Positions 42,601 through 48,600 of a stretch of DNA of 64,000 bases are shown piece after piece; the first letter of the stretch is position 1; every line of letters begins with the position of its first letter. The stretch lies in assembly GCF_053078305.1 (NCBI RefSeq), contig NZ_CP166879.1. One strand, 5' to 3'. The position numbers are program-made.

Positions 42601-45600
42601 GATACCATTTTTCGAGCCAGCAATTGCCAGGGCATTACGTAACCCCAGCGTATTACTGTCGGGATTATCCGGGCGGTTTACCCCGTATCTCGCCATCTGG
42701 TTATCCTGCGCCATCTGCGCTGTACGGAGACTGGAAGTGGCAAGGCCTCCCACCCGTGCAAGCTGTGCATTCATCAGACTGTTGTTCTCCCCAAGGTCAG
42801 CCAGCCTTGCTACACGGGGTAAATATCTGGTGCGCCAGTCGTCGTATTGCTGGCGGGTCAGCGCTGCGGATGTCTGCCAGTCCCCCTGAGGGCGGGCTGC
42901 TCCGGTATAACCGTATCTTGCAAGTGTTTCGTATTTACCGTACTCCATAATCACAGTCTCCAGTTCTGAGCCTGATGCTGAATGGCATTAGCGCCGGTGC
43001 CAGGTGTTTTAGCACCGCCACTTCCTCCGCTACCGCCAGCCTTATGCATCGCATATGCACCTGCCGCACCCAGACCAGCGCCAACAAGAGAGGCTCGCCC
43101 CTGCTGTTTCGTAAACGCCGCCTGTGCATCCGATTTAGCTTTTGCCAGACTGCTGTCTGCCAGAGAGTTAAAACTCTGTAACGCATCCGCCTTCTGACCA
43201 GAACCGAGAGCAGCAACATCCTGTAGCCCGGCAACATACTTATCTGCCTGCGACACCTGCCCCCGTGTGGTTGTGTCAATCTGCCCGGTCACCTGGTCGC
43301 TTTGATTTGCATCCATTACCGCATTAAAACGACCACTGGATGGGTCAACGCCGGACTGAGCAAGATTACCCGCCAGCTCCCTTCGCGCTTCACCAAACTG
43401 TTTCTGATAACCAAGATTTGTTGTGCCAGCAATATTGTCGTACTGCTGCTCACTGTTAAGGTCATCGACCTTTTCCATGAAGTTATCTTCTGCCGGACGG
43501 AGGATTTTTTGATAATCCTGCCACCCTTTCCAGGCCACTTCTTCCTGTGCTATTTGCGCTGCTGTTGGTTTTACTTTGGTATCACCACCGCCTTTACTTC
43601 CACCCATAATGGCCCCCTGGATAACAAAAAACCCTGCCGGAGCAGGGTCAGAATGTGAATTACAATGTTGGTTTAAACACAATGATGAAAACTGTAGCAG
43701 TCAGACCGCTATCCTGAACACCATGAAGCCATCCTCATCATCCGGCATTCGCTCAAAGCCCAGACGTTTTCCCAGCCGGATAAATCCCCGCCTTGCCGTA
43801 TGAAATTCAGCCCAGCGTCCGCCAGCCAGACGGGTTAATGTCTTCACCTCCGGCAGATAACGCTCAACGCTGTTACTCCCCGTACACACGCCCAGCAACA
43901 CCAGAACATAAGGGATACCATCAGCACTGAGCACAGAACGCAGCACCAGAAAGCCATCAGGTGCCTCAAAACAAAACGCCTGCTTTTTAAGGCAGGCGTC
44001 TTTAACTTCATTCATAAATTCAGGGTTGCGGGAATTTCTCACAACACGCTGCATATACCGGAGAATTTTTTCACTCACACTCTCACCACAAAAAAGAACA
44101 ATGCGGCTATACTGTCTTTAGCTACAGAAGGATGACGGAGAACGCTTCCGACGACCAACACGGCTGGCGTTCTCCGCAAAAAATAAATTACCAGCCGACA
44201 GACATACCCGCAGCAACCCCTGAACCGTTCTGGGTATCCCATGAAGCATTCAGACGTACAGCAGAATTTTCAGTGGTGCGGAAGTGCATACCTGCTGCGA
44301 TAGCCTGCTCATCACGGTAGTTACTTGCAGCCATACCAAAGGAGTACGTTTTACCCTCAACAACAGGAATGGCAGTCATCGCCATTGCTCCTGCAATACC
44401 TGCATCTGCACGTTTACGGTTTTTCTCCACCTCATCACGTAACTGTCGGAATTGCTGATTAGTGCTACGCTCAAGGGTACTGACCCGGTTATCTGTGTAG
44501 GTATTAGCAGACTTCAGTGTCTGTGCATCACCCTGAATACGGGCATTCTCTTCTGCAATACGATAGCGCTCTAACTGACCATAGGTTGCGGCATCCGCAG
44601 CCTGAACACCATCACGAAGCCCACCAATTACACGATTCCCCACATTAACTTCATCGGGGCGAGTGGTCTGAGAGTTAGCCCCTACAGCAACACTGTTCGT
44701 ATAGTTTGCAGTGGCGTTGTAACCTACAGCGGTTGCATTCTCTCCACCTGTAATTGCCCCTCCACCAACCTGAGTTTCTCCAGAACCCAGTGCAGACAGA
44801 CGAGCGTGGATATCCGTTACATCTTCAGCAAAAAGTACGGTATTAATGGTGCTCCCTGGTATTACAGACTTAATTTTAATCTCATAAATATATTCACTAA
44901 TTTCAGGAACATGTCTTGAATATGTTTTCCCATCAGTACCTACTGTCGTGACAAGCCCCTTATCATCTGCACTAAACAGAATTTGATTTGTTTTTGTATT
45001 GACAAAATAAGCGACCTTGTTTGCATAGTCGTAATAAGATGCTATTTCACTACGTGGTGCTAATAACTCTGTGTTAGTCAAACCAGATTTACCGGCATCG
45101 TAAAGAGAATATTTCAAATATTTACCAGCCGTATTTTGTATATCCACACTGGCAGGTCCTGTTATTTTACCATTCTCAACCTTTACTATACTGCCATCCT
45201 GGTAACCTTTCCCTGGAAATCCGAGGTCATTCCAGAACGAATTTATATCTGCATATTGTTTACTTTTCAGAACATCAACAGTTATCCCATTATAAGGTGA
45301 ACCACTAATGCCTGATGAGTTCGCAGATGTATCTACTGCATATGCGTCTGCAGAAAATACCGACAGGCTTAATGCCGGAACGAAAGCTAACAATAGCTTA
45401 CCTGTCATTTTCATGATGTTTATCCCGTGTTAATTATGTCATAAATGCATCGACATCCGGGAACACGGATGTCGTCAAGCATAATACTCACAACCACAAA
45501 ATAAATAAAATAATAAAAAACAACAAGTTAAGATTTATTAATATTTAAAATTATCAAAATACGGAACACATCAAAAATTTATATACACACCGCCAAAAAG

Positions 45601-48600
45601 ACTTAGAAAAAACAAAACATTTCCAATAGTTATTATTTCCCATTCACACATATCCCCTCTCTCGGCCTGTCCGGGATTGGATGAAAGACACTCTACAAAC
45701 GGGTGCCATATCGACTGAACCTCAGCAACCAGTTGACGGGGACTTTCGTCCCCGTCGCGGTTTTCCTACTACTTACACTGTAAGAACGCCGCAAACTCCG
45801 CTCCCCACAAATTCAGCCGGAACTCACACAACGAGCCGTGTAACATCCAGATGGTGAAGATAACCGTCATACAAATTGTGACGGTGATAAGCGATTTTTG
45901 CGACATAGCGCTTGACTCCTTTTACAGAGAGGCGCTAACCTTCTACTTGCTTAAGGTATGATGGTTAGGGCCTCGGGTTAACGTTAAGTTGACTCGGGGC
46001 CTTTCCACATCAGGCCTTCAGGTTCTCCCTCCAGCCATCAGCCGAAAGGCACCCACGCATAATTTACGGTTTTTGCCCTGTACGGGCAATAAAAAACCCG
46101 CCATCACAGCGGGTAGTAAACGGTTACCGGATACAGATCAGAATTTCAGGCCAATGCCAGCAGTAACTCCACTCGTGCGCCAGTCGCCAGAGCCGGAACC
46201 TTCGTAAGCCACATCCAGTGTAACACTCTCATTCAGGTTAAACTGTGCACCTGCAGCCCACGCAAGGGAGTTTTTTTTCGTGCTGTTGCTTTCAGAAAAT
46301 CCGCCACTACTGCTAATATTGTCCTTAATTTTCAGGTCAGCGGTAACTTTAGCAACGCCCATCCCTGCCATCGCATATAAACTCATGTACTGATTAACCC
46401 GCCATGAAGGCCCCGCTAACAGACTCCAGTAATTCGCCCTGATATCCGTTCTGGCAGAAGCTGCCGGATTCTTAATCTTCCTGCTATGATCGGCTGACTG
46501 CACATCAATAAATGTCTGTGAGTTAGTGAGAGAACGCGTCCATGTAAAAGAGGTGATAACGCCAAAATCATCCGTTATCTCGTAGCGATACCTGATATTA
46601 ATGCCCTGTGGATTTTTATCCTTGCCTTCATATCCACTGACCCGACCATCTGTATATTCGCCCAATGAAGAAAAGTAGTTTCTGTTGACGAAATGACTGA
46701 AAGTCTCCCTGTTATGAGCAGTCGCATCCTTTACAAAATCCTTCAGTCCCGGAAACTGAAAGTGCGCATACCCCAGAGAAATTGTATGGTCTCCTTCTGC
46801 TGCATGTGCTGGCATGGCTACCATGCTCGTCCCAATAACTGCACACGCAATAATCTTATAAATATTTTTCATTTTTAGATTATTCCTGTTATTAAAAGGT
46901 ACAGTAATGTGCGATTTTCCTTTATTTAATATAAATATAAATCAAATATATTGTATCGATCTGACAAAAAGTTTTTATTAATATAGATTTTCTTATCAAT
47001 CATACATTGATGCATTAATAACCAGTACCTTATCTATATATCTGGAAAAGTTAGACCATGAGGCAGCACCAGAATAATGTTCACAGGAATATATTTTATT
47101 TCCTGTAGCACAGGTGGATGTGGTGTAAATCGGTTGATAATAAGGTGCTACATACTGGCTATGATACCCCACCAGTGCCGGCATAATTGCACATGGATAC
47201 CCAAGGTCCTTTTCAAATCCGACGTCAACAGGTATTAACTTCGCGTCAAGCAGCATCATTTCGCCATGATAAATCATCTCACCGTCCGGGTTATACATGG
47301 CGATACCATACTCAGAAGGTGGAGTAACCATATTTGCGAAAGCATAAACCGTCGTAACACCAGGGTTCGTTCCCCTGACAATTACATGAAGCCTTAGTGC
47401 ATGATATCCATCAATCTGTTCATGCGTGTACATGACATCGGCCTTCTTCTCTGTTCTGATAAAGAAAAAACAACTTTTGCCTGACGGGATTGATGTTTTA
47501 AAAAAAGACTTTTCAGTCGCCGGTATGGTGCCTTTGTTGATCAGACACTGCGGCGTAAAACCTGGACTTATCCATACGCTGCCATCCGGCTTCATAATGC
47601 TCAAACCATACATGACACTTATCCCCAGAATGTATAAATATAAGATCCCATACCCTGCTCAAGATTCGACCACGTCACCGTATTGCCATTAATGGTTATC
47701 TTCGGTACTTTCCGATCCGCAAATACATTATTCCAGGGAAATAAACAACATACAGCCTGCAATGATTTCCCGTCGGGTTTATTCGTGTACGTCTTTGAGC
47801 CAGACTCCGCTGTAAATCTGTCCAGGAAAAATACCGGAGTCAGCACGCCCGTAACATTAACGTTATTTCTGTTATAAATGGCAAAACCGTATTCCAATAC
47901 TCACCTCCTGATCAGCGTAATCTGCCTATGCGAACAGCCAGTCGTCCATTCTGATCATAAACCTCAATTTTATCATTGCGGATCACCAGTCCTACATTCT
48001 GATTAGAGTAACGAATTGTCAGTTGCCCTTGTGACGTAACACTGAAAAGGCCTCCAATATTCAGGTTACCCTGAGAATCAACCTGAAAGTTTCCGTTCTG
48101 AATAACGGCACTCCGGATAACTGGCGAAGTGATACTTACCCCGGCTTTTACTTCATCCGCCACAACCTTCCGCGATACCAGTGTTTCAATCACTGCGTCA
48201 TAAATCATCGCTTTCGGGATCACTACCTTGCCACCTGATACCGCAAACGGATAGGCTGTGTTATCCGGATTATTTGGGTCAAAGACAAACAACTGCGACG
48301 CAGAAATTGCAACCTGACTTACAGGCCTGCCTTCACTGTCTTTTCCGGCGACAATCCCGATCCCCGCAGTGATGCCATCAACTCCCGCTTTTTTTGACCA
48401 CATCGCAAGGAAGGCCTCACCGCCTTCTTTATCCAGTTTAGTGATGCGCTTGTCGACCTCATTAAGCGATTCACTGGTTGACGAATCCAGTGTGGTTATG
48501 CGGGTTTCAATACCACCAATCGTTCTTGTCGTTTCTTCCCTGAGAGTCCCTACAACTTCGGTTGTCTTAATTGCAGCATCCTTTACAGCCTGCCCCTGCG

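Follow-up and report, generated by a model that had tools for sequence, protein, structure and literature searches.

What are genes for outer-membrane proteins doing among the virion genes of a Shiga toxin (Stx) prophage, and do they bring their own means of expression? We consider these questions for a stretch of 64,000 nucleotides from NCBI RefSeq assembly GCF_053078305.1, contig NZ_CP166879.1 (the whole stretch is called the window below). An earlier note on this DNA had proposed that two surface genes, for a YadA-like trimeric autotransporter and a Lom/Ail-family protein, form a cluster between the tail genes and a giant-protein module. Both genes are indeed there, in a 933W-type prophage, with the tail-needle genes on one side and the block of the ejection protein (the giant gene) on the other. 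Instead of a cluster of two, we find three independent accessory modules, as a hok/sok-like locus between the two genes had been overlooked. We think it likely that lom, the hok/sok-like locus, and a cassette with the adhesin gene are separate accessory modules in the late operon, and that they work by the mechanism proposed below.

A Saa-family adhesin gene on an inserted cassette

The adhesin gene is part of a moron cassette, whose features are:

44088..45696, minus strand: moron cassette of 1609 bp (regulatory region, adhesin gene, and 3' stem-loop)
44188..45414, minus strand: Saa-family trimeric autotransporter adhesin, an intact open reading frame (ORF) of 408 amino acids
45451..45474, minus strand: stem-loop with arms CGACATCCG (45451-45459) and CGGATGTCG (45466-45474), a perfect 9-bp stem, and a 6-nt loop
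45481..45509, minus strand: candidate sigma-70 promoter, proposed from its -35 TTTATT (45509..45504), 17-nt spacer, and -10 TATTAT (45486..45481)
44135..44177, minus strand: stem-loop after the adhesin's stop codon, starting 11 nt past it; its stem has 10-11 bp and its loop 21 nt

The cassette comprises 282 bp of AT-rich upstream DNA, the adhesin gene, and 100 bp of downstream DNA. Phage 933W lacks it: the window is 97-98% identical to 933W up to 44087 and again from 45697, and the 1609 bp stand in place of two 933W bases (junction L002 4388|4391). Strain JNEC-KY171 has two 933W-type prophages, one with the cassette and one with an empty site. The empty-site prophage (L025, NZ_AP045167.1 1756456-1765676, locus 3415-3418) has only "TG" at the site; its flanks are 99.0% and 99.7% identical to the window, and it shares the window's rare lom allele. 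The right end of the cassette adjoins the 3' end of the hok mRNA. We also considered a transposon-like insertion and rejected it: neither terminal inverted repeats nor a target duplication are present, and the ends of the cassette show just 9-10 nt of microhomology.

The base composition of the cassette is also unusual. Upstream of the gene and in its 5' half, GC content drops to 34-40%, versus about 50% in the flanks. By windows, it is 34-36% over 45300-45749 (the adhesin side) and 29% over 46800-47099 (the lom side), versus about 50% in the surrounding phage DNA, which confirms that both surface genes have AT-rich upstream DNA. In the sense of Hendrix and Juhala, a moron is extra DNA of deviant base composition between otherwise adjacent genes, with a promoter and a terminator of its own. 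The cassette has the position and the composition, and its absence from 933W and from the near-identical JNEC-KY171 prophage shows that it is an insertion relative to these phages, in line with the earlier view of a moron. By position and base composition, it is a textbook moron.

The order lom-hok-adhesin-L0129 is found in all eight of the full-context loci that we examined, and shorter contigs fit parts of this order. One divergent allele of the adhesin gene lies in another context, beside an IS66 transposase, with the same upstream features. Because these features travel with the gene into the IS66-flanked context, the regulatory region belongs to the cassette.

Of 5426 complete Escherichia coli genomes, 19 have the cassette, all of them from human or food isolates. 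Its carriers include Stx1c prophages, such as that of strain 2013C-3033, whose adhesin protein is identical to the window's. Among phage records, only phiSTEC1589-Stx1c carries it; this phage is inducible and lysogenizes MG1655 and MC1061 (PMC12029490). The passages of that paper that were searched mention no adhesin and no lom. The record itself (L001, PQ600364.1) mislabels the adhesin as "terminase large subunit," Lom as "Bor," and L0127 as "endopeptidase Rz."

Is the product really a trimeric autotransporter? Its layout is a signal peptide (amino acids 1-26), a variable tip (27-205), a YadA-type head and neck (206-281), a coiled-coil stalk (282-350), and a four-strand anchor (351-408). Pfam's YadA_anchor matches amino acids 353-408 (1.1e-9) and YadA_head matches amino acids 224-248 (1.1e-5), which bears out the presence of a trimeric autotransporter gene at 44188..45414 on the minus strand. 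As read from the translation, the N-terminus MKMTGKLLLAFVPALSLSVFSADAYA|VD begins with basic residues and contains a hydrophobic core as well as a cleavage motif, A-x-A. The anchor matches the structures of the Hia and YadA anchors, and the last residue is tryptophan. In the AlphaFold2 (AF2) model of the monomer, a helix of about 70 residues is followed by strands at 357-366, 369-379, 385-395, and 402-407. A Sec signal peptide, a four-strand anchor, and a head/neck/stalk passenger are the sequence features of trimeric autotransporters (type Vc), and the predicted protein has all of them. Judged by their coding sequences, both of the window's surface genes are intact and have export signals.

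In a search of 5.8 billion proteins, the nearest named relative of the adhesin was Saa. The description as YadA-like therefore holds for the head and the anchor, while the nearest characterized relative is Saa (52% identity) and neither YadA nor Eib. Saa is reportedly the autoagglutinating adhesin of E. coli that produce Shiga toxin (STEC) and is encoded on pO113-type megaplasmids. The two proteins have the same overall architecture and can be aligned end to end, with 52% identity over 375 amino acids to a 386-amino-acid variant of Saa. By region, the signal peptides are unrelated (15% identity), while the tip has 32% identity, the head and neck have 55%, the stalk has 72-74%, and the anchor has 76%. 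For the original Saa of 516 amino acids, identity is 71% in the stalk and anchor versus 41% in the passenger. Both adhesins occur in STEC of the LEE-negative type, in which the locus of enterocyte effacement is missing. However, saa is on a plasmid while this gene is on a prophage, and long alleles of Saa have 37-amino-acid stalk repeats, which the window's adhesin lacks. Also, the upstream region of the plasmid saa is unrelated to that of the adhesin gene, and the hairpin, which we looked for there, is absent. We rejected the idea that the adhesin is Saa proper: with an overall identity of 41-52%, and named "YadA-like family protein" by the Prokaryotic Genome Annotation Pipeline (PGAP), it is a homolog only.

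The Eib proteins (EibA, C, D, E, F, and G) are also encoded by lambdoid prophages, but their identity to the adhesin is about 40% over only about 90 amino acids. For EibC, EibD, and EibE, the similarity is limited to amino acids 225-317 of the adhesin (the head, the neck, and the start of the stalk), and the rest of the stalk is Saa-like. Because the immunoglobulin-binding stalk segment of Eib is not shared, we did not class the adhesin with the Eib immunoglobulin-binding proteins. The stem-loops annotated at eibC, one an AT-rich palindrome and the downstream one a true terminator, are unrelated in sequence to the hairpin in the window.

More recently, "Yal" clades of EibG-like adhesins, which are proximal to Saa and of unknown function, have been described from Japanese LEE-negative STEC with JNEC-KY strain names (bioRxiv 10.64898/2025.12.25.695649). 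The passages of that preprint that were read report no Stx-phage moron context, no hypervariability of the tip, and no 5' stem-loop. Strains JNEC-KY171, 174, 176, and 202 carry homologs of the adhesin gene (83-98% DNA identity), and going by the strain names, the window's adhesin probably belongs to the same family as Yal.

We compared 22 sequences of the adhesin: the window's, 19 other alleles from phage contexts, and two Saa references. From head to anchor (amino acids 206-408), 18 of the 19 alleles are 96-100% identical to the window's protein; the exception, the IS66-linked allele P0019, is 91% identical. In contrast, the tip (amino acids 27-205) falls into at least five types with 49-73% identity. 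Within lineages, the 5' leader and the signal peptide are conserved as well. A variable tip on a constant scaffold suggests, at the sequence level, that the exposed binding or antigenic end is swapped by recombination or diversified.

The start of the gene varies too. In L007 (ST866), L011, and L012, a 9-nt duplication (ATCATGAAA) at the start codon gives an additional upstream in-frame ATG and a signal peptide that is three residues longer.

The upstream stem-loop and expression of the adhesin gene

A perfect 9-bp hairpin had been described at 45451-45474, and the sequence and its inverted repeats agree exactly. In the window's allele, the RNA is predicted to fold with -15 to -16.4 kcal/mol (z about -3.8). 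Stems of this kind are not rare, as there are 3 perfect 9-bp hairpins in the window versus 1.5 in shuffled sequences; the hairpin is beyond chance because it is conserved across allele lineages, not because of the stem alone.

To describe this conservation, we aligned 13 loci from three allele lineages, with 11 distinct sequences among them. Eight of the nine pairs are kept, two of them through compensatory changes (C-G to U-A and G-C to A-U), and three pairs vary only to G.U on the sense strand of the gene. The loop sequence differs between lineages. Across the alignment, 91.9% of the stem's cells are paired, versus 19-43% if the partner columns are slid. Also, the hairpin is the minimum-energy fold in every allele lineage (-15.0, -12.9, -7.9, and -9.5 kcal/mol). 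Searching IMG/VR with the stem pattern yielded six contigs, all from lineages that we had already seen, and Rfam gave no family at the hairpin even at permissive thresholds.

What would place this stem-loop at the end of an mRNA is the candidate promoter. It is the top score in a position-weight scan and lies at the same position in three lineages (as TAGTAT or TAATAT in the others). The block TGAGTAnTAT is invariant across lineages, and six nucleotides separate the last base of the -10 from the base of the stem. If this -10-like block is used, then the transcript would start at the stem's base, because the block lies six nucleotides upstream, and would carry a 5'-terminal stem-loop. In the fold of the whole leader, the GGGA Shine-Dalgarno sequence and the AUG are unpaired; the stem ends 24 nt before the former and 36 nt before the latter.

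5'-terminal stem-loops protect enterobacterial mRNAs such as ompA from decay that depends on the 5' end. Like the ompA leader, the adhesin's leader has a stable hairpin near the (here predicted) 5' end, well upstream of the ribosome-binding site, on the mRNA of an outer-membrane protein. The two leaders have no sequence relationship, and a stabilizing effect would be a hypothesis drawn from the parallel. By this analogy, the hairpin is most likely a 5'-terminal stem-loop that stabilizes or regulates the mRNA.

Two other roles for elements in the leader were considered and rejected. A terminator of upstream transcripts would need a U-tract, and there is none after the hairpin in any lineage. 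A GGCGGT stretch that resembles the RfaH ops element, noticed by eye, is not conserved in the other lineages.

The upstream region shows further variation and conservation. The AT-rich promoter region (about 45500-45520 in the window) has TTTATT(G/A) repeats whose copy number varies by strain, with 7 additional nucleotides in 2013C-3033; changes in the number of repeats could alter the geometry of the promoter. Farther upstream, at about 45580-45600 on the minus strand and roughly 170-190 nt from the adhesin's start, a T-rich motif (AAATGTTTTGTTTTTT) is invariant in three lineages, including the IS66-linked allele.

Could the inverted repeat act as DNA instead? It might be a palindromic operator (GACAT-N11/12-ATGTC) that overlaps the transcription start and through which a dimeric repressor or activator controls the adhesin's promoter. 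The GACAT and ATGTC half-sites are invariant in all lineages while the center varies, both of the double changes keep the two-fold symmetry, and the conserved -10-like block directly precedes the repeat. Prophage-borne Eib adhesins reportedly need dedicated activators, IbrAB, which would also fit an operator. However, three independent single changes break the symmetry of the DNA yet remain as G.U pairs in the sense RNA, and the half-sites are 11 nt apart in some lineages but 12 nt apart in others. There is no second copy of the motif in the window (2 loose matches versus 1.96 expected), and we did not recognize any known binding site. Because the compensatory changes also preserve the DNA's symmetry, we rank an operator second among the readings of the hairpin, although we think that it is rather unlikely.

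At the other end of the gene, the stem-loop at 44135..44177 (inverted repeat I4) is kept in lineages A and B but not in C. There is no U-tract downstream of it; instead, a U-run precedes it. The adhesin's transcript is probably read through this stem-loop into the L0129 homolog.

The earlier note had given both surface genes promoters and terminators of their own. What stands is the canonical terminator after lom. A standard sigma-70 scan found no correctly oriented promoter upstream of the adhesin gene, and neither gene has a consensus promoter; for the adhesin gene, a weak candidate at a conserved position remains, although it fails the standard scan.

From these features, we infer export, trimerization, adhesion, promoter use, the start of transcription, and the stabilizer role as follows. 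The adhesin would be exported by Sec via its cleavable signal peptide, and three C-termini would contribute four strands each to a 12-strand outer-membrane barrel. The stalk, the YadA-type head, and the hypervariable tip would then be displayed on the cell surface, where, by analogy with Saa, the likely activity would be adhesion between cells and to the host. Upon induction, all three modules would be on the antiterminated late transcript. In the lysogen, expression of the adhesin would depend on the weak promoter in AT-rich DNA, which is probably silenced by H-NS. The conserved hairpin would begin near the predicted transcription start and would stabilize or otherwise regulate the mRNA.

Several observations weigh against this account. 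The candidate promoter matches 8 of 12 consensus positions, which is below the threshold of the standard scan. Neither the scan nor the fold gave a canonical terminator after the adhesin gene, and the only candidate for a terminator of its own, as a moron should bring, is the stem-loop without a U-tract. We found no expression data for the adhesin. The AF2 monomer has a mediocre confidence (mean predicted local distance difference test, or pLDDT, of 63.6) and leaves the fold of the tip unassigned. The three wobble changes are slight evidence for a sense-strand RNA (chance alone would give them about 1 time in 8), and both compensatory changes also maintain the DNA palindrome. For lom, expression in the lysogen is suggested by analogy only, because its upstream allele differs from that of phi24B. 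Finally, some adhesin alleles (377-379 amino acids; P0022, P0023, and L011 3001-4202) are frameshifted near the 3' end, so that the anchor coding is out of frame, and the existence of such anchor-less alleles implies that the adhesin gene is dispensable.

Some of these observations would be expected if the adhesin gene were silent, decaying cargo, whose product lysogens never make in a useful quantity, with upstream features that were merely inherited with the cassette. The gene is rare (19/5426 complete genomes, as above), frameshifted alleles exist, it has no consensus promoter, and its AT-rich context is typical of DNA that is silenced by H-NS. On the other hand, most alleles are full length, their stalk and anchor are 97-100% identical, and the tip diverges without stop codons. 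Because the tip diverges in protein sequence, without stops, over a constant stalk and anchor, selection on the surface-exposed end would fit. The changes in the hairpin are compensatory, unlike free drift. We therefore doubt that the gene is only decaying cargo.

The hairpin had also been suggested as a thermosensor or translational control element. A hairpin in the putative 5' untranslated region of a virulence-type surface protein would suit an RNA thermometer or translational gate, and the stem of lineage B is weaker (-7.9 kcal/mol). ROSE and fourU thermometers melt at 30-42 °C through mismatches or weak pairs, and the window's stem has none: it is perfect, contains G and C, is stable at -15 to -16 kcal/mol, and matches no Rfam family. 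It also lies 24 nt from the Shine-Dalgarno sequence and 36 nt from the AUG, both of which are left unpaired. This suggestion was not borne out, and we consider it very unlikely.

That the YadA-like protein is a fiber or receptor-binding component of the virion is hardly credible: its gene is among tail genes and PHROGs families that share the C-terminal region are labeled "tail" or "adhesin" (phrog_17426 and phrog_26246), but the protein starts with a cleavable signal peptide of the classical kind and ends in a complete four-strand membrane anchor whose last residue is aromatic, near-identical phages assemble without it, and the phi24B virion proteome and cryo-EM model assign the fibers to other proteins (bioRxiv 10.64898/2026.04.10.717836).

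lom, the hok/sok-like locus, and the surrounding genes

The other two modules and their neighbors are:

46138..46872, minus strand: lom, an ORF of 244 amino acids for an eight-strand outer-membrane barrel of the Ail/Lom family; the protein has a signal peptide and ends in ...GLKF
46873..46995, minus strand: upstream region of lom, AT-rich (29-37% GC)
46086..46114, minus strand: intrinsic terminator after lom, ACCCGC-tgtgatg-GCGGGT and then TTTTTATT; the stem is at 46114..46096
45697..46054, minus strand: hok/sok-like type I toxin-antitoxin locus, between lom and the adhesin gene
45769..45906, minus strand: ORF of 45 amino acids for a Hok-family toxin
49180..47912, minus strand: tail tip/needle gene (phrog_496), first of the genes listed here in transcription order, which runs from high to low coordinates
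between the tail needle gene and lom, minus strand: two small genes (phrog_557 and phrog_425)
43701..44078, minus strand: homolog of L0129 of 933W (phrog_610, 2.8e-69), function unknown
40913..32487, minus strand: giant gene, 2808 amino acids, last of the genes listed here in transcription order

The Lom-like gene is intact and where it had been placed. Lom matches Pfam's Ail_Lom (1.3e-29) and OMP_b-brl (8.3e-16) and, over its full length, phrog_108 "Lom" (1.2e-77). It is 92% identical to the Lom of 933W, which is at the same position in that phage. Among solved structures, those of lambda Lom (9wso, 1.1e-23), Ail (3qra, 2.3e-19), and OmpX match it. A profile match across the barrel, a signal peptide, and an aromatic C-terminal residue place it in the Ail/Lom family. 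Compared with lambda's Lom (206 amino acids), it is longer at 244 amino acids, with a longer first external region. Against the Rck-type complement-resistance model NF011777, Lom scores 98.1 bits, which is far below the cutoff of 258. Serum resistance is not an established function of Lom.

The terminator of lom was found by a consensus terminator scan, as the earlier note had proposed (stem 46114..46096 followed by the T-rich tract), and its sequence is conserved in 933W. Upstream of lom, the standard sigma-70 scan found no correctly oriented promoter, only weak candidates. Aligned with 933W and five further loci, the window's upstream region and signal-peptide codons (46783-46995) differ in allele from those of 933W and phi24B; this upstream allele is found in only 9 of 5426 complete genomes. 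lom itself is thus mosaic, because the remainder of the gene is 933W-like. Lysogens of phi24B express the 933W-type lom constitutively, independent of induction (PMC3342100, PMC4651098), while the window's lom has a different and rarer upstream and signal-peptide allele. By analogy with that sister allele, the literature supports describing lom as a moron. lom is carried by nearly all phages of the 933W/phi24B type.

Between lom and the cassette, the Hok-family ORF, which we identified by translation, matches phrog_251 "MokW-like host killing" (1.3e-23). PGAP annotates Hok/Gef at the same place in every related locus, and in L011 and L014 the homologs are annotated with Pfam's HOK_GEF. As read from the sequence, the ends of the mRNA are complementary: 5' GGGUGCC (46054..46048) can pair with 3' GGCACCC (45707..45701). 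We take this to be the fold-back arrangement that is typical for hok mRNAs. Rfam's sok model (RF01794) matches 45893-46054 on the minus strand with 37.9 bits, which is under the gathering score of 59. On the basis of sequence, the toxin ORF and the complementary ends identify a hok/sok type I locus, with partial support for the RNA component. Compared with the common allele, the Hok of the window is short by one codon. Both lom and hok are ordinary features of such phages at this position.

The late region, which is on the minus strand, is collinear with 933W, phi24B, and other short-tailed Stx phages. We took the gene order from the map of 933W and from the PGAP-annotated Stx1c prophage of strain 2013C-3033. 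A 4-kb query around the locus matches 197 phage records, nearly all of which are Stx-converting phages. In phages without the adhesin cassette, the L0129 homolog comes directly after hok (as in the 933W map and in the empty-site locus). Several conserved genes of unknown function lie between the L0129 homolog and the giant gene. In phi24B, the giant protein is the proposed ejection protein and other proteins make the fibers (bioRxiv 10.64898/2026.04.10.717836).

The first 31 kb of the window (1-31600) is chromosomal, with putP, putA, rutR, rutA-G, and then ymdF. Because the window's left part is the chromosomal rut/ymdF region, the end of the prophage adjoins ymdF, at the rut operon's wrbA side. 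A Hok-like remnant ORF (32305..32421, plus strand) lies just beyond the giant gene. Beyond the giant gene in the Stx1c prophage of 2013C-3033 (L003), there is a frameshifted "YadA C-terminal domain" pseudogene and an S6-family autotransporter (a serine protease autotransporter of the Enterobacteriaceae, or SPATE); the two lie at 7031-7511 and 2107-6099 of that locus. The end of that prophage thus has further surface or secreted cargo, with no equivalent in the window.

Meaning for LEE-negative STEC

Prophage-borne trimeric autotransporters (Eib) and the Saa family were already known, and the window's adhesin joins them. Its modestly interesting features are the hypervariable tip on a constant scaffold and, where the mRNA is predicted to begin, a covarying stem-loop. 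As a whole, the cassette is plausible as virulence cargo. More tentatively, it might be a self-contained, transducible adhesin module on inducible Stx phages, in which the swappable tip (of at least five types) sets the surface or host receptor for LEE-negative STEC lysogens and the 5' stem-loop is an undescribed cis-regulatory RNA for expression in the lysogen; we regard this combination as possible rather than probable.

LEE-negative STEC are without intimin, and how they adhere is understood only in part; among non-fimbrial candidates, Saa and EibG are known best. A gene for an adhesin of the Saa family rides on 933W-type prophages, including an inducible Stx1c-converting phage that lysogenizes K-12 (PMC12029490). 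Because the adhesin is mislabeled in at least one phage record, screens for virulence genes may miss it. If the adhesin is made, then its hypervariable tip would matter for the range of hosts or tissues and for antigenic typing, and a toxin and an adherence factor could be transferred together in one step. If the cassette is indeed a transducible adhesin module, a single phage infection would deliver toxin and adherence together.

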